Origin: Escherichia coli
Lineage (GTDB): Bacteria > Pseudomonadota > Gammaproteobacteria > Enterobacterales > Enterobacteriaceae
Strand: one strand, 5' to 3'
DNA: 64,000 nt
NCBI RefSeq assembly: GCF_024502345.1
Contig: NZ_JALDNN010000001.1
Shown here: positions 10,549-38,231 of the stretch, piece by piece
Layout of the letters: every line of letters starts with the position of its first letter
How positions within the stretch are numbered: position 1 is the stretch's first letter
The notes under the pieces: generated by a model
Databases searched by the model: none
Told to the model about the DNA's origin: nothing
What the model saw: only the letters and a program-made list of their open reading frames with translations
Made by a program: the position numbers and the translations under genes

Positions 10549-11289
10549 ATGCGTAAAATCGCATTAATTCTTGCGATGTTGTTGATCCCGTGCGTTTCGT
10601 TTGCCGGTTTGCTGGGCAGCAGTAGCTCGACCACGCCAGTGAGCAAAGAGTATAAGCAGCAGTTGATGGGATCCCCTGTCTACATCCAGATCTTCAAGGA
10701 AGAACGTACGCTCGATCTCTACGTCAAAATGGGCGAGCAATATCAGCTGCTCGACAGTTATAAAATCTGTAAATATTCCGGCGGCTTAGGGCCAAAACAG
10801 CGTCAGGGCGATTTCAAAAGCCCGGAAGGGTTTTATAGCGTCCAGCGTAATCAGTTAAAACCAGACAGCCGTTACTACAAAGCGATTAATATTGGTTTCC
10901 CCAATGCCTATGACCGTGCGCATGGTTATGAAGGGAAATACCTGATGATCCACGGCGATTGTGTTTCCATCGGCTGCTACGCAATGACCAATCAGGGTAT
11001 TGATGAGATCTTCCAGTTCGTTACTGGTGCGCTGGTGTTTGGTCAGCCGAGCGTGCAAGTGAGTATTTACCCGTTCCGCATGACCGACGCCAATATGAAG
11101 CGCCATAAATATTCCAACTTTAAGGACTTCTGGGAGCAACTGAAGCCGGGTTACGACTACTTTGAGCAAACCCGTAAGCCACCGACCGTTTCTGTGGTCA
11201 ATGGTCGTTACGTGGTCAGCAAGCCGTTAAGCCACGAAGTTGTGCAGCCACAACTGGCATCAAACTACACGCTCCCCGAGGCAAAATAA
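10549..11289 (+). CDS. yafK: L,D-transpeptidase-like periplasmic protein YafK
   Basis: 246-aa ORF with signal peptide [19 protein letters not shown] and YkuD-like core ([12 protein letters not shown]). Confidence 0.9.
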
Positions 11290-12027
11290 GCGCCATTCGC
11301 CTGGCATAATCTTTTGCCAGGTTTCATTGCCCGTCAGCGGCTGTGTTGCAATCACCGTGACCACATCATTCGGTGTGGTCTGCGAGCTGAAGTCGATTTC
11401 CACATCCTGATCCAGCAGCGTTGCCACGCCAAACGGCGCGCGGCGGGTGATCCAGTGTAAATTAGTCGAGCAATACGCCATCACATAGCGCCCGTCAGAA
11501 AGCAGCATGTTGAAAACGCCCTTCTGCCGCAGTTCATCCGCCAGTGAGGCGATATATTTAAACACTGCCGCCATGTTGCCCGGTGTGCGCGGGTAACGCT
11601 GCGTTAATTTATGCAGGAGCCAGCAGAAGGCTTTTTCGCTATCGGTTTCACCGACCGGGCGGAAGTTGCCGGTTTCCAGTGATTTGTAGCCCGTCAGTTG
11701 TCCGTTATGGGCATAAGTCCAGTTACGCCCCCATAACTCACGGGTAAACGGGTGAGTATTTTCCAGCGCCACCTCGCCCCGATTGGCCTGGCGAATATGA
11801 GCCACCACCGAACAGGATTTTATCGGGTAGTCCTGGACAAGTTTGGCGATGGGGGAATTAAAGCTGGGTTGTGGATCTTTAAATGTGCGACAGCCTTTAC
11901 CTTCGTAAAAGGTAATGCCCCAGCCATCTTTATGTGGCCCGGTTCCACCACCACGCTGCACCAGACCGGTGAAACTAAAGCAGATATCGGTAGGGACGTT
12001 GGCGCTCATCCCGAGCAATTCGCACAT
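11260..12027 (-). CDS. yafJ: Class II glutamine amidotransferase YafJ
   Basis: Start moved to [12 protein letters not shown]... (cat at 12025-12027), preceded by GGAGG; N-terminal Cys nucleophile. Confidence 0.9.
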
Positions 12028-12089
12028 GGGTAACCTCCACAACAGCGGGAGCGCATGGCCCCCGGCGAAGATTGATTTAAGAATTTTCA

Positions 12090-12228
<139 letters not shown>

Positions 12229-12232
12229 AGAC

Positions 12233-12811
12233 TTACTTAACCATCTCTTTTTCAATTAACTGGATCAGGATATGGATCACTTTAATGTGAATCTCCTGAA
12301 TGCGGTCGGCATAACCAAAGTGCGGAACGCGAATTTCGATATCCGCCGTGCCAGCCATTTTACCGCCGTCTTTACCGGTCAGGGTGATCACTTTCATCCC
12401 CTTCTCACGCGCCGCTGCGATCGCTTTGATCACGTTTGCAGAGTTACCGGAGGTGGAGATCCCCAGCAGTACATCGCCTTCGCGACCTACCGCTTCAACG
12501 TAGCGGGAGAAAATATCATTGAAACCGAAATCATTACCGACGCAGGAAATATGACTAACGTCAGAAATAGCAATCGCCGGGTAGCCCGGACGGTTTTCAC
12601 GGTAGCGACCGGTCAACTCTTCGGCAAAGTGCATAGCGTCGCAATGGGAACCGCCGTTGCCGCAGGAAAGCACTTTGCCACCGGCTTTAAAGCTGTCTGC
12701 TAACAGGACCGCCGCGCGCTGAATGGCGTGAATATTGGCGTCATCTTTTAAAAAGTTAGCCAGCGTTTCCGCCGCTTCGTTCAGTTCGTTACGAATAAGA
12801 TCCTGGTACAT
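12233..12811 (-). CDS. gmhA: Phosphoheptose isomerase (sedoheptulose-7-phosphate isomerase)
   Basis: Start moved to [17 protein letters not shown]... (cat at 12809-12811), giving 192 aa; SIS domain motifs; the track ORF has a 54-codon 5' extension. Confidence 0.95.
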
Positions 12812-13050
12812 GAGGATATCCTTCAGCATAAATGTAATAGACAAAATGCAGTGTACCGGATACCGCCAAAAGCGAGAAGTACGGGCAGGTGCTATGACCA
12901 GGACTTTTTGACCTGAAGTGCGGATAAAAACAGCAACAATGTGAGCTTTGTTGTAATTATATTGTAAACACATTGCTAAATGTTTTTACATCCACTACAA
13001 CCATATCATCACAAGTGGTCAGACCTCCTACAAGTAAGGGGCTTTTCGTT

Positions 13051-15495
13051 ATGATGATTTTGAGTATTCTCGCTACGGTTGTCCTGCTCGGCGCGTTGTT
13101 CTATCACCGCGTGAGCTTATTTATCAGCAGTCTGATTTTGCTCGCCTGGACAGCCGCCCTCGGCGTTGCTGGTCTGTGGTCGGCGTGGGTACTGGTGCCT
13201 CTGGCCATTATCCTCGTGCCATTTAACTTTGCGCCTATGCGTAAGTCGATGATTTCCGCGCCGGTATTTCGTGGTTTCCGTAAGGTGATGCCGCCGATGT
13301 CGCGCACTGAGAAAGAAGCGATTGATGCGGGCACCACCTGGTGGGAGGGCGACTTGTTCCAGGGCAAGCCGGACTGGAAAAAGCTGCATAACTATCCGCA
13401 GCCGCGCCTGACCGCCGAAGAGCAAGCGTTTCTCGACGGCCCGGTAGAAGAAGCCTGCCGGATGGCGAATGATTTCCAGATTACTCATGAGCTGGCGGAT
13501 CTGCCGCCGGAGTTGTGGGCGTACCTTAAAGAGCATCGCTTCTTCGCGATGATTATCAAAAAAGAGTACGGCGGACTGGAGTTCTCAGCTTATGCCCAGT
13601 CTCGCGTGCTGCAAAAACTCTCCGGCGTGAGCGGGATCCTGGCGATTACCGTCGGCGTGCCGAACTCATTAGGCCCGGGCGAGCTGCTGCAACATTACGG
13701 CACTGACGAGCAGAAAGATCACTATCTGCCGCGTCTGGCGCGTGGTCAGGAGATCCCTTGCTTTGCACTGACAAGCCCGGAAGCGGGTTCCGATGCGGGC
13801 GCGATTCCGGACACCGGGATTGTCTGCATGGGCGAATGGCAGGGCCAGCAGGTGCTGGGGATGCGTCTGACCTGGAACAAACGCTATATTACGCTGGCAC
13901 CGATTGCGACTGTGCTTGGGCTGGCGTTTAAACTCTCCGACCCGGAAAAGCTGCTGGGTGGCGCAGAAGATTTAGGTATTACCTGTGCGCTGATCCCGAC
14001 CACCACGCCGGGCGTGGAAATTGGTCGTCGCCACTTCCCGCTGAACGTACCGTTCCAGAACGGACCGACGCGCGGTAAAGATGTCTTCGTACCGATCGAT
14101 TACATCATCGGTGGGCCGAAAATGGCCGGGCAAGGCTGGCGGATGCTGGTGGAGTGCCTCTCGGTAGGCCGCGGCATCACCCTGCCTTCCAACTCAACCG
14201 GCGGCGTGAAATCGGTAGCGCTGGCAACGGGCGCGTATGCTCACATTCGCCGTCAGTTCAAAATCTCTATCGGTAAGATGGAAGGGATTGAAGAGCCGCT
14301 GGCGCGTATTGCCGGTAATGCCTACGTGATGGATGCTGCGGCATCGCTGATTACCTACGGCATTATGCTCGGCGAAAAACCTGCCGTGCTGTCGGCTATC
14401 GTTAAGTATCACTGTACCCACCGCGGGCAGCAGTCGATTATTGATGCGATGGATATCACTGGTGGCAAAGGCATTATGCTCGGGCAAAGCAACTTCCTGG
14501 CGCGTGCTTACCAGGGCGCACCGATTGCCATCACCGTTGAAGGGGCTAACATTCTGACCCGCAGCATGATGATCTTCGGACAAGGAGCGATTCGTTGCCA
14601 TCCGTACGTGCTGGAAGAGATGGAAGCGGCGAAGAACAATGACGTCAACGCGTTCGATAAACTGTTGTTCAAACATATCGGTCACGTCGGTAGCAACAAA
14701 GTTCGCAGCTTCTGGCTGGGCCTGACGCGCGGTTTAACCAGCAGCACGCCAACCGGCGATGCCACTAAACGCTACTATCAGCACCTGAACCGCCTGAGCG
14801 CCAACCTCGCCCTGCTTTCTGATGTCTCGATGGCAGTGCTGGGCGGCAGCCTGAAACGTCGCGAGCGCATCTCGGCCCGTCTGGGGGATATTTTAAGCCA
14901 GCTCTACCTCGCCTCTGCCGTGCTGAAGCGTTATGACGACGAAGGCCGTAATGAAGCCGACCTGCCGCTGGTGCACTGGGGCGTACAAGATGCGCTGTAT
15001 CAGGCTGAACAGGCGATGGATGATTTACTGCAAAACTTCCCGAACCGCGTGGTTGCCGGGCTGCTGAATGTGGTGATCTTCCCGACCGGACGTCATTATC
15101 TGGCACCTTCTGACAAGCTGGATCATAAAGTGGCGAAGATTTTACAAGTGCCGAACGCCACCCGTTCCCGCATTGGTCGCGGTCAGTACCTGACGCCGAG
15201 CGAGCATAATCCGGTTGGCTTGCTGGAAGAGGCGCTGGTGGATGTGATTGCCGCCGACCCAATTCATCAGCGGATCTGTAAAGAGCTGGGTAAAAACCTG
15301 CCGTTTACCCGTCTGGATGAACTGGCGCACAACGCGCTGGCGAAGGGGCTGATTGATAAAGATGAAGCCGCTATTCTGGTGAAAGCTGAAGAAAGCCGTC
15401 TGCGCAGTATTAACGTTGATGACTTTGATCCGGAAGAGCTGGCGACGAAGCCGGTAAAGTTGCCGGAGAAAGTGCGGAAAGTTGAAGCCGCGTAA
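13051..15495 (+). CDS. fadE: Acyl-CoA dehydrogenase FadE
   Basis: Start moved to [20 protein letters not shown]... (ATG 13051), giving 814 aa; the track ORF starts 26 codons upstream. Confidence 0.95.
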
Positions 15496-15503
15496 TTGAA
15501 TAA

Positions 15504-15530
15504 CGGAGCCGAAAGGCTCCGTTTCTTTAT
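15504..15530. terminator. Putative bidirectional terminator between fadE and ivy
   Basis: Hairpin acggagcc-gaaa-ggctccgt followed by ttctttat. Confidence 0.5.
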
Positions 15531-15537
15531 CCGCTAA

Positions 15538-16011
15538 TTATTTAAAATTAAAGCCATCCGGATGGTTTTCCAGGCTGCCGGTCAACGCCGCGAACAGCAC
15601 CGTTTTACCATCAATCGAAAGCGCATCGTTCACATTCAGCCAGGTGAGTTTCTCTTGCGACGTTTTCTCATCAATAGTCGAGAACAGCCCCGTCATCTGA
15701 TTAGATTTCTCGGACCACATCACAGCGATACGTTGCGAGCCACAGTCATGCGGTTTGCACGCGCTCATCACCTGATACGTCTCATCTCCCAACGTTACGG
15801 TTTGTGCGGGAGTATAAGTACCGCCTTTCATCACCCAGGCAGGCAGCTTATGCCCTTGTACCATCTGATTAAATGCAGCTTTGGTGGTTTCGCCCTTTGC
15901 AAGGCTGCTAATGGTTAAATCATCCTGCGCCATTGCACTGGTGGCGATGACCAGAGCGGCGACTGTCGTTATTGCCTTAAACATCATTCCTCCCGAGCTT
16001 ATCCTGCCCAT
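15538..16011 (-). CDS. ivy: Inhibitor of vertebrate lysozyme Ivy
   Basis: 157-aa ORF with signal peptide and CKPHDC motif. Confidence 0.95.
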   Translation of the reverse strand: MGRISSGGMMFKAITTVAALVIATSAMAQDDLTISSLAKGETTKAAFNQMVQGHKLPAWVMKGGTYTPAQTVTLGDETYQVMSACKPHDCGSQRIAVMWSEKSNQMTGLFSTIDEKTSQEKLTWLNVNDALSIDGKTVLFAALTGSLENHPDGFNFK

Positions 16012-16164
16012 GTTATTAACCTTCTAAAGCCTGGCGATAACACGATAATTTGCAAATCAGATATTTCCAATATCAGCATTTGTTATCAATTTATTCTGCG
16101 CTAAGGCAACTGCCTGATAAGGTGTTAAAGTTATAAAACCCTTCGCATAAAGGAGTTGTACACC

Positions 16165-16935
16165 GTGCCTGGTTTGAAGATTACGCTTTTGCAGCAACCA
16201 CTGGTGTGGATGGATGGCCCTGCCAACCTGCGTCATTTTGATCGTCAACTGGAAGGTATTACCGGGCGCGATGTGATCGTTCTACCGGAGATGTTTACCA
16301 GCGGCTTTGCCATGGAAGCGGCAGCTTCGTCGCTAGCACAAGATGACGTAGTGAACTGGATGACAGCTAAGGCGCAGCAGTGCAATGCGCTGATTGCAGG
16401 CAGTGTTGCATTACAAACGGAGTCTGGTTCGGTTAACCGCTTTTTGCTGGTTGAGCCGGGCGGCACGGTACATTTTTATGATAAGCGTCATCTGTTCCGC
16501 ATGGCAGATGAGCATCTACATTATAAAGCGGGCAATGCGCGAGTGATTGTGGAATGGCGCGGCTGGCGTATTTTGCCGTTGGTGTGCTACGACTTACGTT
16601 TTCCGGTGTGGTCGCGCAATCTCAACGATTATGACCTCGCCATCTACGTTGCCAACTGGCCTGCTCCGCGCTCTCTGCACTGGCAGGCATTGCTGACGGC
16701 CCGCGCGATTGAGAATCAGGCGTATGTGGCGGGATGCAATCGCGTCGGCAGCGATGGCAACGGCTGCCATTATCGCGGTGACAGCCGGGTGATTAATCCA
16801 CAAGGCGAGATTATCGCTACTGCCGACGCGCATCAGGCAACGCGCATTGATGCGGAGCTGTCGATGATGGCATTGCGGGAATATAGAGAAAAGTTTCCGG
16901 CATGGCAGGATGCGGATGAGTTTAGGTTGTGGTGA
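16165..16935 (+). CDS. yafV: Nitrilase-superfamily omega-amidase YafV
   Basis: C-N hydrolase ORF (...[19 protein letters not shown]...); GTG at 16165 chosen because AAGGAG sits 9 nt upstream; the track starts at TTG 16156. Confidence 0.85.
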
Positions 16936-17007
16936 GTGGGGGTTGTGTTTAAGGACGGGGAGAGTCGGGGTATTACTACGAAAGCCCGCTCTCCTGCGAC
17001 CACTTTT

Positions 17008-17175
17008 ATCATAGGAGTGTGGAAGCGCTTTTCCATCAATTGCGATGACGTCTTTATCATTTGATGAATGGCAGTCACGCATCCAGTTAATAAAGCATTC
17101 GTGAAATTATACTGAACGGATACAAGACATAACTCTAATTATGGTGTCGTGAACAGGATTACCATTTTCAAAATT
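17008..17175 (-). mobile_element. H-repeat (ISAs1-family transposase gene) internal fragment, copy 1
   Basis: Reverse strand encodes ...[25 protein letters not shown]...; a near-identical 168-bp copy lies at 18928-19095. Confidence 0.6.
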
Positions 17176-17206
17176 ACGATATTATTTGCAGTAATTATGT
17201 TATTAA

Positions 17207-17719
17207 TCATTGTGATATTTCCATCTCTGTGATTAATACCGGATAAGCATTTAATTGCAGAGTTTGCACGAAATTATCGCAGATAACTGGCAATAACAAT
17301 AACCCATCAGCCCGCTGCTGTAATACCTCCATTCGTTCTACTGATTCAACATTAACAACCAAACCAAGGGCATTTAGCGATTTAAGGATCTCCAGATGTT
17401 CACTCATCCAGCGCAGAGAAAAAGGATCATCCCCAATTATAAAAACAGCCCCCCAGCCGGTTAATAACTGGCGTTTCATTACAGAGCCAGGATGAAGTCG
17501 AGTACATATTACAGGAAATACCCCCTGTTGCGATGGTTCCGATGATGTGGATAATTCAGAAATATTTTCCATTGTTAGTGAAGAATTAACATCCATTAAT
17601 AATGGTGAAACAACCTCACTTTCCTTGCTAGTAATGGCTGCACTAATCTGAAAGGGAAATAACAATATTATTACGTATAAACTCATTTTTAACATAACAC
17701 ATTCAATCCGTTTATTCAT
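17207..17719 (-). CDS. Hypothetical secreted protein (signal peptide), unknown function
   Basis: 170-aa ORF in an AT-rich block; hydrophobic N-terminus MLKMSLYVIILLFPFQISAAITSK; no family recognised. Confidence 0.45.
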   Translation of the reverse strand: MNKRIECVMLKMSLYVIILLFPFQISAAITSKESEVVSPLLMDVNSSLTMENISELSTSSEPSQQGVFPVICTRLHPGSVMKRQLLTGWGAVFIIGDDPFSLRWMSEHLEILKSLNALGLVVNVESVERMEVLQQRADGLLLLPVICDNFVQTLQLNAYPVLITEMEISQ

Positions 17720-17785
17720 GTTATAGAATAATGATGCTATAAATCATCATTAATGTTCAATTATTTAATCACACAATTTGAAAAA

Positions 17786-18289
17786 TCATTGACCAATGTG
17801 AATTGGCAATGTACCACTCAAGTTAAAATCACTGAATATTTTATCAATTTCTCTTGCAGTTTCTATATATTTAACCTCTTTCGTACTTGCATTATAAATA
17901 GCCCAAGCCTCGGGATGGGATGTTCCACCAAACCTTACAAAAAAACTTGATTTCATATTATTATATAAATTAACATCAGGAAAAGGATCTTCTCCAAAAT
18001 TAGTAGTATTGAATAATGAAAGTTCGTATCGCTTAGAAAATTCTGTTGGTAGGATAGCTTCACTGCCATCAATAGCATTCATCCAGAGTTTGTTACCATT
18101 ATATTCCAACAATAATCTCTGTTTTGCATGTGTCTTATCTCGTTCTTTAACGACAGCGAATACCTTTTTAACAACTTGCTGTGCGGATGGTCCTATTGTA
18201 TTACCAAAAGCTGGCAACCCGATTTTGCCATAAACACTCTCCTGAATGAAATAAATATCCGTTTTATCGGCCTCGACAATATCTACCAT
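17786..18289 (-). CDS. Hypothetical protein, unknown function
   Basis: 167-aa ORF in an AT-rich block between the H-repeat fragments; no family recognised. Confidence 0.45.
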   Translation of the reverse strand: MVDIVEADKTDIYFIQESVYGKIGLPAFGNTIGPSAQQVVKKVFAVVKERDKTHAKQRLLLEYNGNKLWMNAIDGSEAILPTEFSKRYELSLFNTTNFGEDPFPDVNLYNNMKSSFFVRFGGTSHPEAWAIYNASTKEVKYIETAREIDKIFSDFNLSGTLPIHIGQ

Positions 18290-18612
18290 TTATCCCTCCA
18301 AACAAGACCTGACTCCAGTACAAGAGCATAGTGTGTAGTAAACACTTCATGCTCTTGCCTTGACCATTGAAATAACAACTTTCGTTTGTTTACTGTACGC
18401 TGTCTAAATAGCTGCGTGGAATAAAGTTGCACTTTTTATCATCCCTTGCAGAGCAAGATTACGAAAGCCCGCCCCCGAAAGGACTGACGCGAGGTAGTCT
18501 CTGTCCGCAGCTGCTTTCACATCTTACATCTTGCCCCTGCCTTGAGTATCTTATCTTTCTTTGAAATATTAATAGCGATGTTCCGTATCCCTGAAAATAA
18601 TTCTGTTGCATT

Positions 18613-19095
18613 TCATCTTCTTATTATAAAGTCGTCTTTATTCATTACCACGTCCAGATGCCAGTGCAATTTATTCTCCACTTGCCAGTGATTTCGGTTC
18701 GCTGTGGCGAACTTCTCTGCGGTTAAATCAGCAGAAATGCTATAATATCTGTCCGTCATTTCTGGCTCTTTCTTTTGTTCTGTTATTATTGAACGAAAGG
18801 AGACTGCCATGCATAATTTCTTCAGCCCTTTTCATTCAAACGTGAAATCAATAAGTTCATCAGGGACATCGCAAATAATATGAAGACGGATTTTAATGAC
18901 ATAAATCGCTCCCTTGCGGCGACTCTTGTCATAAGAGTGCCGAAGCGTTTTTCCATCAATTGCAATGACATCTTTATCATCTGAGGAATGGCAGTCACGC
19001 ATCCAGTTAATAAAGCACTCATGAAATTTTGCAGGACTGATACAGGATACAACTCTGGCAATGATATCGTGAACAGGAATACCATTTTCAAAATC
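18613..19095 (-). pseudogene. H-repeat-associated (ISAs1-family) transposase remnant with internal deletion
   Basis: C-terminal ...[21 protein letters not shown]... (65-aa ORF) plus an upstream copy of the [14 protein letters not shown]... fragment. Confidence 0.65.
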
Positions 19096-19440
19096 ACCAT
19101 ATCACTTCAAAAAATTGGGATGTGTTTCCCCAAATCATCTATATCTTCCCAGCCTTATGCACCAAAAATAACGGCGCAAATAGTTAACAGATAGAATATC
19201 TGGCAATTTATGTTCCACTTTCCAGGCTTGCCTGTAATCGGGGATAATAGAAATATGTTCCATCAATTTTTTAAGTTCCATTTTGTCCCCCTTAATTATG
19301 CAATGAGTATTTGATCATGTATAAGCAATGAAAAACAGCTTTAGGTAATAAGGAACACCTCAATTATTGAACATAAAATGCGAATTATTTAGTACAAAAA
19401 AAACAGCATTACGTGATTTTTCCCTGGGAGTACAGTGTGA

Positions 19441-19490
19441 AGTTTCCGGCATGGCGGGATGCGGATGGGTTTGAACTGGGGTGAATAGGC
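19441..19490. repeat. Imperfect direct repeat of the yafV 3' end
   Basis: agtttccggcatggcgggatgcggatgggtttgaactggggtga closely matches 16892-16940 (agtttccggcatggcaggatgcggatgagtttaggttgtggtga). Confidence 0.6.
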
Positions 19491-21246
19491 ACTACATGTC
19501 TACATTTTCCCGGTCACCAACCCCTCAATCTTATGAACTTAACCTCGGCTCACCGTTTTCGATTCCATCCAATAAATGACCCGGTTGGATGTGGGCTGAT
19601 CGCCAACAACTTTGCCATCTGCAGAGATTAGCTTCAGCTCTTTATTAGCCTCATCACCGAAGTAAATCATGCGGTAGCGAAAATAACCGCCCCAGGGTTC
19701 ACGTCCACCCAGCGAACTTTGCATAAACCAGGCGCGGGAGTCGTGAACCTGGTCATCATAGAGGGCCAGTAATTCAGCGCATGGCTGAGTACGCGTTCCC
19801 GTTCCCAGTGAATCAATAAAAAATTGTGGATAGAGTCCGTCTCCCATAGCCTTAATTTGCTGATATTCTTTTGCTTCATCATCGCCATTAATCAGATACA
19901 CCGGATATTTAGGAATGACATCCACAAGAATCTGAATGGCTTTCTCCATGACGCTGCCGTTAATATCGCGCGTCCATCCTTTATAATCGCTCTGAAATTC
20001 TCGGGCTGCCTCTCGCAACTGATACTGAGCATTGGTTGGGTCAAGGATAGGAATGCCCTGATTACTTTCATCAAGTGTGCCATTCCCTTTCTGCTTGTTC
20101 GCCCGCTCTTTTTCAATATTTTCCATTTGTTCTTTACGCGCTTTAGCCTCTTTATCAAGTCCATCTTTATCCAGCTGTGGCGCCTTAATATAAAAAGGTT
20201 GCACAAGAAGGCTGTTATTCGCATAGCGACCGATACGCCAGGCGGTGATCCAGCCGATCTGATCGCTAATTGCGCTTTCAAGAACCTGGGCAAGTTGATA
20301 GGAGTGATAACCTTCCCTCGTATCAATCATTTCTTCTGTACCCTGCAAGGTGGTGTTCAGCAGCGTTTGTCGCCAGATGTTGAAGCGTTTTGTTAATGAA
20401 TTAGCAATCGTAAATTCCTTTACGCTAGAAGGACTCATAATTCGCAGAGGCGACACACCTTTTATTAATGGAGTAACAAATTTAGAATAAACAGCAAGTG
20501 GTGCTCCTGAATCAAATGCAGCAAGATACATATCATGCAGTGCTATCTGAGAAAGAATTTCGCCTGAGTCACCACAGGACTTCCCCTGATCGCGAACGGG
20601 ATAGCCACCACCGACATCAGAGTGCATCCCCGGATAGATAATTTCCGTCTGGACGACGGATTGAATCCAGCGGAAAGCACAGCCGCTGCTCATGCGCGGC
20701 AACGAAGTGGCGGCAGCATTTAATCAGGCCGGGAAACTGCCTCTCATCAGGGAGTTGCTGAGTACTATCGGCCCATCCCATATGACCGGCAGCGCCCGGT
20801 AAAACATGCGCCGCCCCCACAGAAGCTACGGTATCCAGCAGCCCCAAAAACTCAATACTGACAGCTAACCCGGCCAGCATCACCTGTTGCTCCTGCGGGC
20901 AAGCTAACTGAGTCAACCAGTTAACAAAAGTTCGTGCTTCCGCTGCGCCACGGGAAAATCCGTAGATAAACAGCTTTACGTTTAGCAGGCGCGGACTGGC
21001 TTGCTCTAACAGTCCCTGTAATTTTTCCAGGTAGGGGTTAATCACATTGCGACGATTCACTTCACCAGTCATAGGCCAGGGAGCGCGCATAAGAGGAATG
21101 TGCTCTTTTGCCACATTATCATCCAGTCGCTTATGGGAAGGGTCAATGGAATAGTTCAGGGCATCCACGAGGCGTAATAATGCCCAATTAATTCGATCTT
21201 CACCACCAGTAGCGAACTCCAGCCCGCTGTTGCTGTAATCCATTTC

Positions 21247-25309: not shown

Positions 25310-26299
25310 TCAGCGCCAAAGGCCGCCGGTGCGCCAGCGTGGCGGACGTGGTGATACGGTCACCTCGGGGACGAAACGGGCCGATGGAAACGGCGGCATC
25401 GCGGGCGGCGGAGCAAGTTCCAGCAAGCGCTCAATGCGTTCAGCCGTCGCCGGATGCGTGCGCAACCAGGAGGGTTCCGGATTGCCCCATCCGGGCAGCA
25501 GCCAGGCGCGCCAGGAGCGGCTCACCCGCTCGATCTTGGCGAGCGCCGAGGCCAGCCCGTGCGGGTCGCCGGTCAATTCGGCAGCGAGCCGGTCGGCGTC
25601 GAATTCGCGCACCCTGGACAAGCCCAACTGAGCCAGCAAGGCCAGCTGTGGCGCGACCGCCAGTAGAAGCAACGCGGGCCAATTGACTTCCGCGACTCCA
25701 AGCAGCAGCGCTGGCAAGCTGAGCACGATCGCAAGCTGCCCCAGCAGGGCCAGCAGATGGGTCAGCCGGCTGATGGAATCGGCCAGGCCCATGACACGCA
25801 AATCCTCGTTCGCAATATGCGCGATTTCGTGGCCGAGCACGCCGGTCAACTCGCGGGGCGTGAGGCTACGCAGCAGGCCGTCGGTCAGCGCGATGGCCGC
25901 GTGATGCTTCGAACCGGTGGCGAAGGCGTTGACGACCCCGCTGGGCACGTAGTGCGGTACCGGCACGGCAGGCAGCCCGGCCCGCGCCGCCAGTTCGCGC
26001 AACACAGCCCAAAGATCGGGCGCTTCATCCGGGTACAGGGGGCGTGCGCCATACAGCCGCAAGGTCAGTCCGGAGGCGGCCGCCGGTTCGAGCAGCAGGG
26101 TGAACCCCGCGGCCGCAAGCGCCAGCCACAGCCCGCCGTCACCCAACAGCAGGCTGCCAGCGACGGCGGCAATCCCGAGCAGGGTCAGCACCAACAGCGC
26201 GGTTTGCAGGCGATTGAGCCAGCGATGCCGCGCGCCGACATCCTGCGCGTGGCGCAGATCACGACTGATCATCTGAGCGTTCCCCGGCGGTCCGGTCAT
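25310..26299 (-). CDS. M48-family zinc metalloprotease (HtpX-like)
   Basis: HEXXH motif in LGHEIAHIANEDL; hydrophobic N-terminal segments. Confidence 0.8.
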   Translation of the reverse strand: MTGPPGNAQMISRDLRHAQDVGARHRWLNRLQTALLVLTLLGIAAVAGSLLLGDGGLWLALAAAGFTLLLEPAAASGLTLRLYGARPLYPDEAPDLWAVLRELAARAGLPAVPVPHYVPSGVVNAFATGSKHHAAIALTDGLLRSLTPRELTGVLGHEIAHIANEDLRVMGLADSISRLTHLLALLGQLAIVLSLPALLLGVAEVNWPALLLLAVAPQLALLAQLGLSRVREFDADRLAAELTGDPHGLASALAKIERVSRSWRAWLLPGWGNPEPSWLRTHPATAERIERLLELAPPPAMPPFPSARFVPEVTVSPRPPRWRTGGLWR

Positions 26300-26762
26300 C
26301 GCGCTCGCGCAGCAGCCAGTAAGTCACCCCGAGCGCCAGCGTAGCACCTGCGAGCGCGGCGATCTTGCCGGGGCTCGCCTCGGGGTCGAGGATCACGAAC
26401 TTGCGCGCCAGCGCGATCAGGCCGATGAGGATCACCGTCTTGACCTGGATGATGCTGTCCCGACGCAGCGCCACGCGCACGATGGAATGCTTGAATTCCA
26501 TGGCGATGAGCAGCGTCATGATCATGGCGAACACGGTCTGGAAGACCTTGTGATCAAGCGGATTGAACGCGTCGAGGATCAGCAGCGTGAAGACAATGGA
26601 CATGAGCTGGAGCAGCGACACCACGATGATCACGGCGATCACCGCAGACAGCACGAGCGCGATGACCTGCTCGAAGCGCTCGTAGAACGTCATCACGGCC
26701 CATTGGGCGCGAAAAGTTTTCGTCAGCGTAGGTTGCTTTTCATTCATCGCCATTTCCCTCAA
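26259..26762 (-). CDS. psiE: PsiE-family inner-membrane protein (phosphate-starvation-inducible)
   Basis: 167-aa multi-pass membrane ORF with a PsiE-like hydrophobic pattern. Confidence 0.75.
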   Translation of the reverse strand: MREMAMNEKQPTLTKTFRAQWAVMTFYERFEQVIALVLSAVIAVIIVVSLLQLMSIVFTLLILDAFNPLDHKVFQTVFAMIMTLLIAMEFKHSIVRVALRRDSIIQVKTVILIGLIALARKFVILDPEASPGKIAALAGATLALGVTYWLLRERDDRTAGERSDDQS

Positions 26763-27610
26763 TTTACATTGGCAACCATAACTTGGTTGCGCCCTTGTCT
26801 TTTTGCCTGGTAGAGCGCGCTGTCCGCCTGCTGCATCACCTGCTCGGAAGAGTTTAAGCGGACGTCGAGGGGAGCCACCCCCATGCTGGCGCTATAGCTG
26901 ATCGACACCTCTCCACACACCAGCGCTGTCGCCGCAACGTCCTGACGAAATCGCTCCGCCCATACTTGGGCGTCTTCTATCGATGCCGCTTCCAACAACA
27001 CAGCGAATTCCTCCCCCCCCCCAATCCGTGCAGCCATGTCGGTTGCGCGAACATGTTCCCTCAACCGTGAAGCAAAGTGCTTGAGCACCTCATCGCCGCA
27101 TCCGTGCCCATAGGTATCATTGATGCGCTTGAAGTGATCGATATCGCAGAGCACAAGTGCTGCTTGTATCTCCGGGCTGCGTTTGAGGCGCGCCCATTCC
27201 AGCTGTAATCGTTCGTTAAAAGCCCGCCGGTTCGACAAGCCGGTCAAGGGGTCGGTGATCGCCATGCGCAGCAACCGCTGCTCCATTTCCTTGCGAGAAG
27301 AGATGTCGAGCAGAGTGCCCACCATCAATTGCCTGCCCGTGTCACCCAGCCAACGACCGCGATCCAGCACCCAAATCCAAACGCCGGATCGATGACGAAC
27401 GCGGTACTCGCACTCCAATCGCTCCGACGGATTTTCTTGGTAAGCGCGCACCTTTGCCAGAACGACCGGTAAATCCTCCGGATGAATACGCGCTTGCCAT
27501 GCGGCATGGGTGGCGCCAATCTCCTCGTCGGAGGTCAAGCCGAACATCGCCAGACTGCGGGCAGAAAGCCTGAAGCTGTCGGTGGCAAGATCCCACTCCC
27601 AGAATCCCAA
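26759..27610 (-). CDS. PAS-GGDEF protein, putative diguanylate cyclase
   Basis: 283-aa ORF with GGDEF-domain signatures (RIGGGEEF active-site motif, DHFKRIND) after an N-terminal PAS-like region. Confidence 0.75.
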   Translation of the reverse strand: MGFWEWDLATDSFRLSARSLAMFGLTSDEEIGATHAAWQARIHPEDLPVVLAKVRAYQENPSERLECEYRVRHRSGVWIWVLDRGRWLGDTGRQLMVGTLLDISSRKEMEQRLLRMAITDPLTGLSNRRAFNERLQLEWARLKRSPEIQAALVLCDIDHFKRINDTYGHGCGDEVLKHFASRLREHVRATDMAARIGGGEEFAVLLEAASIEDAQVWAERFRQDVAATALVCGEVSISYSASMGVAPLDVRLNSSEQVMQQADSALYQAKRQGRNQVMVANVN

Positions 27611-27779
27611 CTCTGCGCCTTCCAGGGCGATGGCGATCCGTTCGTTGTCGTCGATTTTCGCTTGTTGGCGATGCTTCAGCTCGTCACGCCTGTGGCGATT
27701 GGTACGAGCAAAACGCCATAACGCAACCCCATGCCAACATTGGCAAGTAGCGACACCATCAGCCAGATGGTCGGCCCGT

Positions 27780-29498
27780 TCATGGTCTATCCCCGCCTGA
27801 CTGACTGAGTGCCTGCCGTAATTCCTCGATCCGGTGGTCGACTTGGTCGGCGTTGATGCCCAACATCAACAGTACCTGCTCGGCCAGTCCCAGTCCCGCA
27901 GCCAGGTACAACGGGTACAGTCTGACATTGGGCAGATTACGCAAAAGCTGGGCATCCGTTACGCGCTCAGTGGCCACCACCACGGACAAGCTCAGGCGGC
28001 GGTCGAGAACCGCCTGAGCGATACGCAGGGCCGTCTGCGGACGGGCAAACGTCAGCACCACCAGGCGGGCATGGGCCAATCCGGCGGCGGCCAGGGTGTC
28101 GAGCCGACTGGCATCGCCATACGACACCGGCGCCCCCATAGCACGCCCCGCTTCGACCCGTTGGCGGTCCGATTCCAGCAGCAAATGCGGTATGCCTGCC
28201 AGGCGCAGCGTTCGGCTCAGCAGCAGCCCGACGTCATCCGCCCCACAGATGATCACATGGTCGCGCAACGACCGCGCCCGCTCGGCGACTTCGCCTTCTT
28301 CGGCCTGCGGTGGCTGACCGAGTGCGCCCGAGCGGCTGAAAGCCCGCGCCCATCGGTCATGGTGTCGGATCAGGAGCGGTGCCAACCCCATGCTCAACAC
28401 CAGCGCCACCAGCATCGGTTGCACCATGGTGGCGGCGATCAGGTGCTGCTGCATGACCATGCCCAGGAGCAGCAGCGCAAACTCGCCGCCATGACCCAGC
28501 ACGATGCCTGCGCGCCAGGCGTCGAGCGCCGACAGGCGGGTTGCGCGCAGCGCCAGAAAGTTCAGCCCCATCTTGAGAGGCACCAAGGCCAACAGCCAAC
28601 CCAGTACCGCCAGCGGTGCGGCCACGATCTGCGCGGTGTCCAGCTGCAGGCCAATGGTCACGAAGAACAGGCCCGACAGCACATCACGAAAGGGCTTGAG
28701 GTGGCTTTCCATGTGGTGCCGGAAGTCGCTCTCGCCCAGGACCATGCCGGCGAGAAAGGCCCCCAGGGCGGCGGATACGCCGACGGCGTGTGCAGCAGCG
28801 GCTGCCGCCACGACCACGCACAAGGAGACCAGCACGAAGGATTCTTCGTGGCCCTGCCGCGCCACCCAGCCCAGCAGGCCATGCAACAGACGACGCGAGG
28901 CAACCGCCGCTGCCGCGAACAACACCAGCACGCCCAACACTTCGAGCAGCACGCTCTCGATCTTCGGCGAGTCGCCGCGCGCCCAGATCGCCAGCAGGGC
29001 CAGCAGGGGCACGCTGGCCAGGTCCTGAAAGACCAGCACGGCGATGGCACTGCGGCCGTGGCGGGTGGTGAGCTCGCCTTGGTCGGCCAGCTGTCGGCTG
29101 ACCAGCGCCGTGGACGACATGGCCGCTGCGGCGCCGAGCAGTGCAGCGCTCTGAGCTGGCTGACCCAACCCGATCAGCACCAGGGTCAGTGGCGCGGCCA
29201 CGACGACCATCTGCAAGCTGCCGGACGCCAGTACGGTCTTGCGAGTGAGCCAGAAGTGCCCCAGCGAGAATTCCAGTCCGACCATGAACAGCAGCAGGGC
29301 CACACCCAGTTCGGATATGAAAGTCAACGCCTCTCCCGGCGCGATCACACCGCTGACCGAGGGGCCCAGCAAGGCGCCGACGGCGAGGTAACCCAGCAAG
29401 GCGGGTACTCTGAACGCCGCCGTCGCCACCACCGAGAGGCTGCACGCCGCCAGCAGGATCAGGGTAGTGCCGAGCAAATCCTGCGGATTCCACGCCAT
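27780..29498 (-). CDS. kefB: KefB-like cation/proton antiporter with C-terminal TrkA-N domain; first five codons derive from the IS21-family end
   Basis: 572-aa ORF with multiple TM helices and a Rossmann-like VIICGADDVG; start ATGGCGTGGAATCCGCAG lies inside the IS terminal repeat plus target duplication. Confidence 0.8.
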   Translation of the reverse strand: MAWNPQDLLGTTLILLAACSLSVVATAAFRVPALLGYLAVGALLGPSVSGVIAPGEALTFISELGVALLLFMVGLEFSLGHFWLTRKTVLASGSLQMVVVAAPLTLVLIGLGQPAQSAALLGAAAAMSSTALVSRQLADQGELTTRHGRSAIAVLVFQDLASVPLLALLAIWARGDSPKIESVLLEVLGVLVLFAAAAVASRRLLHGLLGWVARQGHEESFVLVSLCVVVAAAAAAHAVGVSAALGAFLAGMVLGESDFRHHMESHLKPFRDVLSGLFFVTIGLQLDTAQIVAAPLAVLGWLLALVPLKMGLNFLALRATRLSALDAWRAGIVLGHGGEFALLLLGMVMQQHLIAATMVQPMLVALVLSMGLAPLLIRHHDRWARAFSRSGALGQPPQAEEGEVAERARSLRDHVIICGADDVGLLLSRTLRLAGIPHLLLESDRQRVEAGRAMGAPVSYGDASRLDTLAAAGLAHARLVVLTFARPQTALRIAQAVLDRRLSLSVVVATERVTDAQLLRNLPNVRLYPLYLAAGLGLAEQVLLMLGINADQVDHRIEELRQALSQSGGDRP

Positions 29499-29586: not shown

Positions 29587-30342
29587 TTAGTCTGAGGTGC
29601 CCGGTGTCGTCAATTTCTTCACCCGCTTTCTCATCGATTCGCCCTTGAGGTTGATCCGATAAGCGTTGTGCACCAGGCGGTCGAGGATGGCATCGGCCAG
29701 GGTTGGATCGCCGATCAGTTCGTGCCAGTTGTCCACGGGCATTTGGCTGGTCACGAGGGTCGAGCGCTGGCCGTAGCGGTCGTCCAGTAGCTCCAGCATG
29801 TCGCGGCGCTGTTCGGCGGTGAACGGCGCCAGGCCCCAGTCGTCGAGGATCAGCAGGTCGGTCTTGGCGTAGCTGCTCATCAGCTTGGCGAAGCGCCCGT
29901 CGCCGTGGGCTAGGCCCAACTCTTCCAACAGGCGCGGCAAGCGCAGGTAACGCACGCTGTAGCCCTCTCGGCAGGCCTGGTGTGCCAGGGCGCAGGCCAG
30001 CCAGGTTTTACCCACGCCAGTCGGACCGTTGATGATCAGGTTGAGTCCGTCGCGCAGCCACTGGCCGCTACCCAGTTGCAGGATCAAGCCCTTGTCCAGC
30101 CCGCGCGGGGCACGGTAGTCGATGTCTTCGAGGCAGGCGCTGTGCTTGAGCCGGGCCTGGCGCAGGCGGCTGCTGAGGCGCTTGTCGTCGCGTTCGGTCA
30201 GTTCGCGGTCGACCAGCAGGCCGAGGCGTTCCACGAAGCTCAAGCTGTCGATGTCCGGGGTTTTCAGTTGCTCGGCGAGTGCCTTGAGCATGCCGGTCAG
30301 GCGCAGGGTCTGGAGCTTGTCCAGGGTCGGATGGGGCAGCAT
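29587..30342 (-). CDS. istB: IS21-family helper ATPase IstB
   Basis: Start MLPHPTLDKLQTLRL... (cat at 30340-30342); Walker [12 protein letters not shown]. Confidence 0.85.
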   Translation of the reverse strand: MLPHPTLDKLQTLRLTGMLKALAEQLKTPDIDSLSFVERLGLLVDRELTERDDKRLSSRLRQARLKHSACLEDIDYRAPRGLDKGLILQLGSGQWLRDGLNLIINGPTGVGKTWLACALAHQACREGYSVRYLRLPRLLEELGLAHGDGRFAKLMSSYAKTDLLILDDWGLAPFTAEQRRDMLELLDDRYGQRSTLVTSQMPVDNWHELIGDPTLADAILDRLVHNAYRINLKGESMRKRVKKLTTPGTSD

Positions 30343-30359
30343 GGTGGGATTCCTTGTGT

Positions 30360-31874
30360 TTAGTGGTAGTAGCCGGGGCCGCGCAGGTTGGCGTGGTCGT
30401 CCGGCAGCAGGGGCAGGTGCTGCTGGGCCAGCGGCAGATTTTCCAGCCCCTGGCGCAGGATCGATTCGAGGCTCTTGTAGCTGCACGCACCGAGGCTGAG
30501 GGCGCGACGGCAGGCCAACTCCAAGCACACTTCGCCATGGGTCTTGCCCAGGCGCAGGATGCCCAGGCAGGCCCGGTAGCCTTGGGTTGGGTGGATGCGC
30601 CGTTCGAGGATGTGGCTGATCACGCCGGCCGTGTTCGGCCCGGTCTGCTCAGCCCAGCGGATCAGCCGTTGTGGCGTCCACTCGGCGTGCTCGCGATGGC
30701 TCTTGGGCATGTGCTCGGCCTGTGTGCTGTGCCGGCCCTTGTGCGGTGAGCGAAGGTGGCTGGCCACCCGCTGATTGGCGTGGAAGCACTCCACCGTGCG
30801 CGCTGTCAGGCGTACTTCCAGTTGTTTCTTCACCAGTTGGTACGGCACCGAGTAGTAGTGCCCATCGACCTCGACGTGGTAGTCGATGTGCACCCGCGCC
30901 TTCTTCCACTCGGCATAGACGTAGGGCTGCTCCGGCAGTGGGCGCAGCGCTGGACGATCCAGGGCTTCGAAGGCCGAGTGCCGGGAGCCCGGCAGCTTGC
31001 GAAACGGTCGTCGGTTGAGCCGCTCCAGCAATAAGGCGATGGCGCTGTTGAGTTCGTCCAGGGAGAAGAACTGGCGGTTCCTCAGCGCGGCGAGGATCCA
31101 GCGCTCGACCACCTGCACGCCGACCTCGGCCTTAGCCTTGTCGCGCGGCTTACGCGCCCGCGCCGGCACCACCGCCACGCCATAGTGCTCGGCCAGATCG
31201 CGGTAGCTCGGGTTGATGTCCGGCTCGTAGCGATGGCTCTTACTCACCGCGCTTCGCAGGTTGTCCGGCACCACGATCTCCGGCACACCGCCGAGAAAGG
31301 AGAAGCAGCGGGCATGTGAGCCCAGCCAGTCAGGTAACTGCTGCGACCAGGTGGCTTCGGCGAAGGTGTAGCTGGATGCACCAAGCACCGCGACGAACAC
31401 CTGCGCCTGGCGGATCTCGCCGCTGTGGCGGTCGATCACCGGCACCGTCTGCCCGGCGTAGTCGACGAACAACTTCTCGCCAACGCGATGTTCCTGGCGC
31501 ATCACCACGTCCAGCTTGCCCTGCCAGGCTCGGTAGTGCTCGCAGAACCAGCTGTACTGAAAGCCTTTCGGCTGGCTCAGGCGATACTCCTGCCAGAGCA
31601 GCGCCAAGGTCACGCCCGGCCGGCGTAGCTCGGCGTGGATCATGGCCCAATCGGGCAGCGGTCGTTGCTCGGAGGGTACCGCCGCCGGTGGCGGGAACAG
31701 CTGCTGCTCCAACTCCGCATCGGACAACGAACAGGGCCAACTGAGGCCGCTGGCGGCAAAGCGACAGAGGTAATCACCGGCACTGCTGTGGCCTATGCCC
31801 AGACTGCGGGAGATCTTACGGACAGACAGCCCGCAATCGAACTTGAGGCGCAACACCTCACGGATTTTACGCAT
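30360..31874 (-). CDS. istA: IS21-family transposase IstA
   Basis: Start MRKIREVLRLKFDCGLSVRKISRSLG... (cat at 31872-31874); HTH then DDE region; the track ORF extends upstream into trx. Confidence 0.85.
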   Translation of the reverse strand: MRKIREVLRLKFDCGLSVRKISRSLGIGHSSAGDYLCRFAASGLSWPCSLSDAELEQQLFPPPAAVPSEQRPLPDWAMIHAELRRPGVTLALLWQEYRLSQPKGFQYSWFCEHYRAWQGKLDVVMRQEHRVGEKLFVDYAGQTVPVIDRHSGEIRQAQVFVAVLGASSYTFAEATWSQQLPDWLGSHARCFSFLGGVPEIVVPDNLRSAVSKSHRYEPDINPSYRDLAEHYGVAVVPARARKPRDKAKAEVGVQVVERWILAALRNRQFFSLDELNSAIALLLERLNRRPFRKLPGSRHSAFEALDRPALRPLPEQPYVYAEWKKARVHIDYHVEVDGHYYSVPYQLVKKQLEVRLTARTVECFHANQRVASHLRSPHKGRHSTQAEHMPKSHREHAEWTPQRLIRWAEQTGPNTAGVISHILERRIHPTQGYRACLGILRLGKTHGEVCLELACRRALSLGACSYKSLESILRQGLENLPLAQQHLPLLPDDHANLRGPGYYH

Positions 31875-32046
31875 GGACAAACGCTCCACGACGACCTCTC
31901 TGCTTCGAAAAAGAGGTCGATGGTAGTGAATAAATCCTGCGTAGCTGCCTGCCTGGAAAGTGTCCGGATGGCCGTGGAATCGGTGTCCGGATGCTCGTGG
32001 AATAAGTGTCCGGATCAGCGTGGAATCCGCACAAATCCTGCATCGG

Positions 32047-32487
32047 TCAGCGTCCCACCTGTGCAGAGGCCCAGCGCACGATGTCCTGCGAGCCCATGGC
32101 GCCTGCCTGGCGGGCGATCTCACGTCCGCCCTGGAACAGGGCGAGCGTCGGAATGCTGCGGATACCGAACTGCGCGGCCAGGTGGGGCTCAGCCTCGGTG
32201 TTCACCTTTGCCAGCCTGATCCCGGGTTCGAGCTGGCGCGCGGCTTGTTGAAACTGCGGCGCCATCATCTTGCACGGCCCGCACCAGGGCGCCCAGAAAT
32301 CGACCAGCAGCGGCAGATCGCTGCGCTCCACGTGGCGCGAGAACGTCGCCGTCGTCAACTCGATGGGCTCGCCGGTGAACAAGGGCTGCTGGCAGCGGCC
32401 GCAGTTGGAACGATCCGCGAGCTTGGCGGCCGGCACGCTGTTGATGGACTGGCAATGTGGGCAGACGATGTGGAGTTCATTTTTCAT
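32047..32487 (-). CDS. Thioredoxin with N-terminal zinc-finger extension (Trx2-like)
   Basis: 146-aa ORF with CPHC...CGRC N-terminal cysteines and active site WAPWCGPCK. Confidence 0.85.
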   Translation of the reverse strand: MKNELHIVCPHCQSINSVPAAKLADRSNCGRCQQPLFTGEPIELTTATFSRHVERSDLPLLVDFWAPWCGPCKMMAPQFQQAARQLEPGIRLAKVNTEAEPHLAAQFGIRSIPTLALFQGGREIARQAGAMGSQDIVRWASAQVGR

Positions 32488-36896: not shown

Positions 36897-38231
36897 TCAA
36901 GAACAGGCCATGAGCAAGAATAGTCCATGAAGCAATAGCGCATGTCCCATCTCGTGATAGGCCACGGTTTCCCGCTCCTTCGGATTGAGCACACGGTTCT
37001 TCCTTTCCAGGCCGGCCACGATGCGCTCGATGGCGGCGGTGAAGTCTTGCAGCTCCACAGCCTGCGCCTTGCGCCGCGTCGCGTTCAGCGCTGCTTCGTT
37101 CACGAGATTGGCCAGATCAGCGCCGGAAAAGCCGGTGGTCAACGCCGCCACCTGTTCCAGATCTACACCGTGGGCCAGGGTGATCTTCTTGACATGGACC
37201 TTCAGGATATCCAGGCGACCTTTCTTGTCGGGACGGTCCACCAGCACCTGACGGTCGAAGCGACCGGCACGAAGCAAGGCCTGATCGAGGATTTCGGGGC
37301 GGTTGGTGGCGGCGAGGATGATCAGCCCGACCGAGCTGTCGAAGCCATCCATTTCGGTGAGCAACTGGTTCAGCGTCTGCTCACGCTCGTCGTGTCCGCC
37401 GGTCGGTCCTCCGACACCGCGTGCGCGGCCCAAAGCATCCAGCTCATCAATGAAGATGATCGCCGGCGCCTGCCCGCGCGCCTGCTCGAACAGGTCGCGC
37501 ACGCGCGCCGCACCCACGCCGACGAACATCTCGACGAACTCCGAGCCTGAGATGGAAAAGAACGGTACCCCGGCCTCGCCCGCCACGGCCTTGGCCAGCA
37601 GGGTCTTGCCCGTGCCCGGCGGGCCAACCAGCAACACACCTTTCGGGATGCGCGCGCCGAGGCGGCCGTAATCCTGCGGGTTCTTCAGGAAGTCGACGAT
37701 TTCGACCAGCTCGGCCTTGGCCTCATCGACACCCGCGACATCGGCAAAGGTGACGCCGGTGTTCTTCTCCATGAACACCTTGGCGCGGCTCTTGCCGATG
37801 CTCAGGAAGCCGCCCATGCCCTGCTTCTCGGCGAAGCGGCGGAACAGGAAGAACCAGACGCCGAAGAAGGCCACCGCCGGCAGAATCCAGGAGAGCACAT
37901 CACGTAGCCAGGTGCTTTCCACCACCCGCGCGTAGGGCACCTCGTACTTGGACAGCCGCTCGGCCAGGTCGGGTTCGACGCGAGTGGCCACGATGGTGGT
38001 CTTGCCCCGGCTGTCCGGCGATTTCAGGCGCCCGGTGACCGTGCGGTCCGACACCAGCACTTCGGCGACGCGCCCCTCGGCCAGCGCCTTCTCGAATTCG
38101 CTGTAGGGCACGGGCTCGACGGTCTTGGCCGCCTGCCAGTAGTTCTGCAGCGTCAGCAGCAACAGGCCGGCGACGATCCAGTAGCCAATGTTCCATTGAT
38201 CTTTCTTTTCCATGGGCAATGTTCCTCGCAA
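36897..38231 (-). CDS. ftsH: FtsH-like AAA+ protease, C-terminally short (ends about 20 residues after HEXXH)
   Basis: 444-aa ORF with TM N-terminus, Walker A GPPGTGKT, Walker B IIFIDELD, then AYHEMGHAL and an early stop. Confidence 0.75.

Follow-up and report, generated by a model that had tools for sequence, protein, structure and literature searches.

A PAS-GGDEF gene in an Escherichia coli heat-resistance island is probably a decaying tdcA pseudogene

Does the heat-resistance island of this Escherichia coli strain encode a working synthase of the second messenger c-di-GMP? The question is raised by an open reading frame of 283 codons (26759..27610, minus strand) in the window, i.e., the whole 64,000-nucleotide stretch of contig NZ_JALDNN010000001.1 that was analysed. 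According to the original prediction, a PAS-GGDEF diguanylate cyclase gene sits here between kefB and psiE inside the island; such an enzyme does not belong to the canonical heat-resistance gene set and may be a variant-specific addition that couples the island to biofilm and motility signalling. The first of these statements was borne out by the reading frame, its Pfam domains, and its neighbours. The answer to the question is most probably no: the window copy appears to be the tdcA/orfE gene of tLST2 (LHR2) islands turned into a decaying pseudogene, with a frame that is open by chance.

The reading frame is embedded in a heat-resistance island. Its upstream neighbour encodes a kefB-type CPA2 (KefB/KefC) cation:proton antiporter (27780..29498, minus strand) and its downstream neighbour is a psiE-family gene (26259..26762, minus strand; start at about 26747 according to PGAP), beyond which HtpX and DegP-like genes are located. 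On the other flank, an IS21-family element (istA/istB; 29587..32123, minus strand), presumably ISPa85, separates kefB from trx-GI and marks the tLST2c variant. It is followed by trx-GI, hdeD, yfdX2, yfdX1, sHSP-GI, a shortened ftsH, cls, clpK, and sHSP20, with Tn7-like tns genes past sHSP20. The 4.2 kb surrounding the gene match the E. coli G3/10 chromosome (NZ_CP060075.1) with 100% identity. There, the RefSeq annotation agrees with the window gene by gene, and the island gene set was read from NCBIfam matches together with the annotation of this identical region. Both content and order are those of tLST2/LHR2, namely clpK, cls (orfA), ftsH, sHSPs, yfdX1/2, hdeD, trx, kefB, orfE, psiE, htpX, and degP. 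Because trx and kefB are separated by an insertion sequence, orfC/orfD are lacking, and ftsH is truncated, the window island fits the tLST2c type as defined in a 2025 survey (PMC12603250).

The gene itself has been described before: where it lies, that LHR1 lacks it, and what it does in Pseudomonas are all published. A GGDEF reading frame termed orfE was reported in LHR2 of E. coli FAM21805 and C604-10, where it is located between orf13 (kefB) and orf14 (psiE) (Boll et al. 2017, PMC5383660). The orthologue from Pseudomonas aeruginosa CF39S is TdcA, a thermosensory diguanylate cyclase of 342 amino acids that combines PAS3 and GGDEF domains, has the motif GGEEF together with a consensus I-site, and is specified by a heat-resistance island of Tn7-like type (Almblad et al. 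2021, Nat Commun, PMC8012707). The same study found the LHR of E. coli AW1.7 to be without tdcA and all TdcA orthologues of more than 93% identity to lie in LHR synteny (PMC8012707); a review of the tLST repeats the identity of TdcA and the LHR context of its gene. The window reading frame is 96% identical to a cluster of 342-aa PAS_3-GGDEF proteins and 94% identical to a P. aeruginosa protein. These values, measured against 342-aa homologues standing in for CF39S TdcA, lie above the 93% mark and go along with LHR synteny. Furthermore, M167 and E257 (in GGEEF) of the 342-aa homologues fit the numbering of the published TdcA mutants. As judged by sequence and synteny, the window gene is a TdcA orthologue of the same lineage as LHR2 orfE.

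Reference loci carry the gene at the same position, as exemplified by the LHR2 reference plasmid of E. coli FAM21805, the tLST2 reference NZ_CP061749, and the P. aeruginosa CF39S island, an outcome that the original prediction had named as refuting it and that makes the gene a known component of such islands. The arrangement kefB-gene-psiE is shared by two further loci of the comparison (L028 and L012) and by the LHR2 reference, a Stenotrophomonas contig displays the order trx-kefB-gene-psiE-htpX-degP, and the gene is found in many plasmids of Klebsiella, Enterobacter, Citrobacter, and Salmonella. The absence of a c-di-GMP synthase from the canonical set holds for LHR1 of AW1.7, tLST1, and tLST3a, all of which lack the gene. 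An htpX-psiE-kefB segment is present in 154 of 5426 complete E. coli genomes, and only 15 of these 154 contain the gene at 80% or more of its length. It is thus variant-specific, as had been proposed, but the variant is one already known and named. In the tLST3a strain S43, the psiE ATG overlaps the kefB stop and no tdcA remnant lies between them; the junction gives no direction with respect to insertion in LHR2 versus deletion from LHR1. Matches of 33% coverage (H63-H66) are not LHR1 but correspond to the "truncated tLST" already described (PMC8290217), with a C-terminal cyclase fragment beside psiE and clpK upstream.

The 283-codon frame covers the 3′ 83% of the gene, starts with a TTG equivalent to Leu59 of TdcA in the first beta-strand of the PAS core, and ends with a TGA at 26759-26761; its counterpart in G3/10 is labelled by PGAP as a "GGDEF domain-containing protein" CDS. 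The 58 N-terminal residues of TdcA are missing, so that everything N-terminal to the PAS core is lost and, of this part of the protein, only the PAS_3 core is retained. This domain, the "thermoPAS" region of TdcA, extends over 27314..27568 on the minus strand (residues 15-99 of the reading frame, Pfam E=6e-15). The GGDEF domain occupies 26783..27262 on the same strand (residues 117-276) and matches PF00990 over model positions 1-161 of 161 with E=8.2e-47 and 159 bits. Both Pfam matches are far beyond chance. NCBIfam agrees with Pfam on the cyclase domain (TIGR00254, E=3e-49) and phmmer yields matches to solved cyclases. The tetrapeptide RATD (27038..27049, minus strand) conforms to the RxxD inhibitory (I) site of diguanylate cyclases.

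Translation of the intact 342-aa protein starts at an ATG that overlaps the kefB stop. The protein comprises, in order, an N-terminal hydrophobic segment, a linker, the thermoPAS (PAS_3) domain, a linker of helical structure, and a GGDEF domain bearing the GGEEF A-site and the RxxD I-site. DNA alignment with three intact 342-codon alleles delimits the full tdcA/orfE remnant of the window to 26759..27783 (minus strand), 1025 nt as opposed to 1029 nt when intact. The original ATG (27781..27783, minus strand) has been preserved and overlaps the kefB stop TGA (27780-27782) in an ATGA arrangement. Translation from this codon yields MNGPTIWLMVSLLANVGM, the N-terminus of the 342-aa homologues; past the point of divergence, it runs into a premature TGA (27676..27678, minus strand), which leaves a leader reading frame of 35 codons, MNGPTIWLMVSLLANVGMGLRYGVLLVPIATGVTS. 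The lesion is a deletion of 1 nt at codon 19 (27727..27729, minus strand), by which ATG-GCG-GTT has become ATG-GGG-TT; it appears as a single-base gap relative to the three intact alleles and is confined to tLST2-type alleles. In a tblastn search with the 342-aa homologue P0001, the match likewise breaks into separate frames at codon 20. An uninterrupted frame of 342 codons from the ATG at the kefB stop is therefore absent from the window allele.

Two ways of rescuing the frame were considered and rejected. The main frame stays open upstream of the TTG as far as a stop at 27868, but no ATG, GTG, or TTG occurs in it between this stop and the TTG at 27610, which eliminates an alternative upstream start. 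Programmed frameshifting was dismissed because no slippery heptamer was seen at the deletion site when the sequence was read directly. The codon-19 deletion is present in each of the 17 complete records of tLST2 type that were analysed (18 entries, with one strain represented twice) and in all 14 metagenome contigs classed as 5′-deleted; for this reason it is regarded as real and ancestral to the tLST2 lineage.

The second lesion lies in the active site. A run of ten G residues (27013..27022, minus strand; C10 on the plus strand) takes the place of the G7 seen in intact alleles, with lengths of G5-G10 elsewhere. No homopolymer in the 64-kb window is longer, and only one other, an A8, reaches a length of eight or more. 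The run falls within the codons for the glycines of the motif: the region reads ATT GGG GGG GGG GAG GAA TTC, and the last six codons (27005..27022, minus strand) specify GGGEEF, the active-site motif with one extra Gly. The resulting motif, R-I-G-G-G-E-E-F, is one residue longer than its counterpart in the 342-aa homologues and in solved diguanylate cyclases. The predicted GGEEF after a PAS-like domain is thus accurate as far as the succession of PAS_3 and GGDEF and the literal string are concerned, but the true motif is GGGEEF; in the same vein, inspection of the conserved residues recovers the inhibitory site as RATD and a catalytic motif that is non-canonical. While the RxxD and GG[DE]EF sites are spaced by 5 residues in 66 of 68 relatives having both, the spacing is 6 in the window and otherwise only in two clusters that represent G10 alleles. 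When aligned by HMMER to 3IGN, a solved cyclase, and to 3I5C, a construct with the WspR GGDEF domain, the window sequence requires a one-residue gap exactly at the extra Gly. The window allele departs from the canonical A-site, R-x-G-G-[DE]-E-F, whose distances to the preceding strand and to the I-site are fixed. Among intact alleles, which carry G7, the run is interrupted in Stenotrophomonas (GGGGGTG). The instability of a G run in the GG codons is in itself a minor new observation.

Codon 19 and the length of the G run were scored for each allele in a survey of 69 entries (the window, 24 complete E. coli genome or plasmid regions, 8 species-representative contigs, and 36 metagenome contigs). 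Alleles of the tLST2 lineage, defined by the 5′ deletion and usually a tLST2-type C-terminal tail, display G7 (3 alleles), G8 (about 22), G9 (4), or G10 (7, two of which are the window and the record of its genome). Alleles with an intact 5′ region have G7 (7, one of them interrupted) or G6 (3), and C-terminal fragments ("truncated tLST" and IS-disrupted Acinetobacter copies) have G6. Every tLST2-lineage allele examined bears the 5′ deletion. These alleles are separated by 0-1 substitutions over about 1 kb, yet their runs are G7, G8, G9, or G10, which indicates that the G run alters far faster than substitutions accrue. The modal tLST2 run, G8, is out of frame, and about 10 of about 36 5′-deleted alleles are in frame, near the one third expected without selection. 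G10 was recovered in four independent complete records (five fetched entries, one from the strain of the window itself) and in two metagenome contigs. Given this independent recurrence of G10 and the universal presence of the codon-19 deletion in the lineage, neither window lesion is likely to be an artefact. Lesions of other kinds have inactivated the gene in other lineages: Pseudomonas saxonica and Pantoea have a frameshift at codon 301, and there are also copies interrupted by insertion sequences, one with an internal deletion, and a second frameshift, located at a G5 run. For the Salmonella Senftenberg ATCC 43845 plasmid, two assemblies agree over 3483 nt except that one has G7 and the other G8; part of the variation in run length may thus be technical, or else this strain may be heterogeneous. 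The dN/dS ratio was considered as a sign of relaxed selection and set aside: at about 0.2-0.3 between the window and three intact alleles, it equals the ratio among the intact alleles themselves, and the substitutions on their own show no decay. It is uninformative, given the near-identity of the tLST2 alleles and the recent date of the inactivation.

In the reading considered most probable, the codon-19 deletion halts translation from the native ATG after 35 codons, and the G run, grown from G7 to G10, places an extra glycine in the beta-hairpin that bears the active site. The 283-codon frame would be continuous only since G10 happens to be in frame, G10 itself probably being derived from a G8 ancestor. 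Changes in run length would arise by replication slippage at a pace exceeding that of substitutions in the rest of the gene. A locus in this state would give rise to no functional diguanylate cyclase and would play no part in the c-di-GMP signalling of the strain. For intact TdcA, c-di-GMP output rises steeply with temperature, with a Q10 of about 135, and thermosensitivity is conferred by the PAS3 domain (Almblad et al. 2021, PMC8012707). Activity is abolished by E257A or by loss of the GGDEF domain, and a natural tdcA frameshift at nt 162 in P. aeruginosa CF39 (162delG) abolishes the heat-induced phenotypes (PMC8012707). The value of this null allele as proof that a frame starting at Leu59 is inactive is weakened by the finding that codon 59 is CTG, not TTG, in related alleles, i.e., those of the tLST3b type and of Stenotrophomonas. 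Deletion of orfE from pFAM21805 left plasmid-conferred biofilm formation unchanged (Boll et al. 2017, PMC5383660). The absent effect fits a pseudogene, though the allele deleted there was G8, not G10. Coupling of the island to c-di-GMP signalling has been shown for the intact Pseudomonas orthologue and is unlikely for the frameshifted GGGEEF allele of the window.

Several features of the window allele run counter to its interpretation as a pseudogene: the frame is intact from the TTG to the stop, a literal GGEEF and the RxxD site are kept, the GGDEF model scores 159 bits, and the TTG is preceded, at 7 nt, by a GGAAGG that weakly resembles a Shine-Dalgarno sequence. The internal TTG might thus direct the synthesis of a truncated 283-aa protein, either a soluble PAS-GGDEF cyclase or at least a c-di-GMP-binding or regulatory one, that would still link the island to c-di-GMP signalling. 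In its favour are 283 open codons containing complete Pfam PAS_3 and GGDEF matches, GGEEF and RATD, a weak SD-like sequence before the start, a CDS call by PGAP, and an in-frame state that persists in the G10 alleles of four independent complete records and two metagenome contigs. Such a protein would begin at the first beta-strand of the PAS core with the preceding 58 residues gone, however, and its extra Gly alters a spacing that is constant in relatives. The otherwise identical sister alleles are mostly out of frame (G8/G9), which argues against selection on the downstream reading frame, and the deletion of orfE had no phenotype (PMC5383660). A truncated active or regulatory product is hence deemed unlikely. 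As for sequencing or assembly errors hiding an intact 342-codon tdcA, homopolymer-length mistakes are frequent in long-read assemblies and one and the same strain has been read as G7 or G8 depending on the assembly. Nevertheless, the codon-19 deletion lies outside long homopolymers and is found in every tLST2-type record as well as in 14 metagenome contigs of short-read style, G10 turns up repeatedly in records independent of one another and in contigs from metagenomes, and even a G7 would leave the 5′ frameshift standing; that both lesions are errors is barely credible.

The G run within the GG codons could also be viewed as a phase-variation switch, with the cyclase on at G7 and off at G6 or G8, and the window representing one of its states. 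Run lengths from G5 to G10 over the 69 entries, the occurrence of both G7 (including cluster P0001 with 211 members) and G6 (including P0016 with 78 members) among 5′-intact alleles, and the G7 and G8 assemblies of the ATCC 43845 plasmid are in line with this view, as is the toggling of tdcA by frameshift in a clinical P. aeruginosa pair (PMC8012707). On the other hand, the published CF39/CF39S toggle is at nt 162, outside the G run (PMC8012707), the run is interrupted in the Stenotrophomonas allele (GGGGGTG) and hence not conserved, G7 is short for a classical contingency tract, and homopolymer calls are error-prone, such that the ATCC 43845 difference may be technical. In the lineage of the window, the 5′ frameshift already blocks translation and the length of the run switches nothing. 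As an account of the window, a switch is highly improbable; it is possible in 5′-intact alleles and cannot operate in the tLST2 lineage. A broader proposal combines both ideas: the poly-G run would be a slippage-prone on/off switch by which a thermosensing c-di-GMP synthase is lost and recovered again and again in island-bearing populations, G6, G8, G9, and G10 would be the footprint of switching and later decay, and G10 could yield a truncated protein with low activity or a regulatory role. This composite scenario is quite unlikely. The pseudogene interpretation is preferred.

A comparison with known systems delimits what is particular to the window allele. It resembles TdcA of P. aeruginosa CF39S in its place between kefB and psiE, in the Tn7-like heat-resistance island around it, in the PAS_3 and GGDEF domains, and in the RxxD site; compared through close homologues, it differs by the 1-nt deletion at codon 19, by GGGEEF in place of GGEEF, and by a C-terminal tail that is 2 residues shorter and of different sequence. 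Relative to orfE of the LHR2/tLST2 references (FAM21805, NZ_CP061749), 0 substitutions were counted over the gene, and the 5′ deletion, the neighbours, and the C-terminal tail are shared. The reference alleles are G8, annotated as two overlapping CDSs, whereas the window allele is G10 and forms a single reading frame; in addition, the window island is of the tLST2c form: orfC/orfD are missing, ftsH is truncated, and an IS21-family element has inserted between trx and kefB. The tLST3b allele of the E. coli 873.10 plasmid (NZ_CP061755), named orfB in PMC12603250, represents the same gene at the same position with about 93% DNA identity. In contrast to the window, it is an uninterrupted CDS of 342 codons with G7 and GCGG at codon 19.

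Homopolymer contingency loci undergo phase variation by slipped-strand mispairing, as exemplified by the poly-G/C tracts of Neisseria and Haemophilus. The window gene shares with them a coding poly-G run that sets the reading frame and varies in length among otherwise identical alleles (G7-G10 at 0-1 substitutions). It departs from them in that an upstream frameshift already disables the gene and not every intact allele conserves the run.

Since both the uninterrupted 342-codon frame and the canonical A-site spacing fail, the window gene should, on its predicted coding capacity, be filed as a tdcA pseudogene or remnant, and not as a working diguanylate cyclase. A description of the shared 5′ frameshift of tLST2 orfE and of the hypervariable G run in its GG codons was not found in the literature examined; the two constitute a small annotation-level point and not a new system. 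Annotation pipelines and island surveys list the reading frame as a diguanylate cyclase, some as a link to biofilm formation, and caution is due in this respect: enterobacterial tLST2 orfE is best treated as a pseudogene unless shown otherwise. If, however, the G run does act as a switch in 5′-intact alleles, a mobile element would carry a temperature-sensing second-messenger enzyme under mutational on/off control.

The five large ORFs of a Tn7-like transposition module occupy positions 44883-52506 on the minus strand of the window, and the annotation of the identical region of the Escherichia coli G3/10 chromosome (NZ_CP060075.1) names TnsE and TnsD. The heat-resistance island is therefore carried on a Tn7-like element, as has been reported for the island of P. 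aeruginosa CF39S. According to the G3/10 annotation, the adjoining stretch (approximately 6800-20300) encodes two site-specific integrases, an M48 peptidase, an IS1 copy, and a type I restriction-modification system with R, S, and M subunits. The presence of these genes beside the island suggests a larger composite genomic island.

Within the island, an IS21-family element (istA and istB; 29587-32123, minus strand) lies between trx-GI and kefB and abuts the kefB start. Because of this insertion at the kefB start, the predicted N-terminus of kefB is slightly extended in the window (572 versus 568 amino acids). The ftsH copy of the island (36897-38231, minus strand) is short, its ORF comprising 444 amino acids as compared with approximately 609 in other tLST2 loci, and its counterpart in the identical G3/10 region is a RefSeq pseudogene lacking the C-terminus. 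Such a shortening agrees with the published description of tLST2a-c as having "minor deletions in ftsH".

The N-terminus of full-length homologs of the diguanylate cyclase TdcA (residues 5-23 in the 342-amino-acid homolog cluster P0001; 27700-27783 of the window, minus strand) reads TIWLMVSLLANVGMAVALWRFA and then RTNRHRRDELKHR. Its mean Kyte-Doolittle hydropathy is 1.8 across 19 residues, positive charges follow, and it resembles a membrane anchor. The parts of the TdcA paper considered here (Almblad et al. 2021; PMC8012707) describe the protein as PAS and GGDEF domains only, with no mention of an N-terminal anchor.

In two independent assemblies of one Salmonella Senftenberg ATCC 43845 plasmid, the sole difference across 3483 nt is the length given for the poly-G tract of orfE, which codes for the catalytic glycines: G8 (L016) versus G7 (L029). 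The Pseudomonas saxonica and Pantoea alleles (loci L020, L021, and L023) carry G7 together with a distinct frameshift near codon 301 and keep the native 5′ start, L021 being cut by a contig end. Four protein clusters (P0010, P0011, P0014, and P0030) share the C-terminal ending "...SASMGGGSP", suggestive of slippage at a second run, the G5 of AGCATGGGGGTG. The cyclase gene seems to have been inactivated repeatedly, by differing routes. In the "truncated tLST" (locus L068 of E. coli NCTC11129 and the 33%-coverage matches H63-H66), all that is left of the cyclase gene is its final ~320 nt, with the tract in a G6 form; this remnant, annotated as a partial "PsiE family protein", adjoins psiE-htpX, with clpK upstream.
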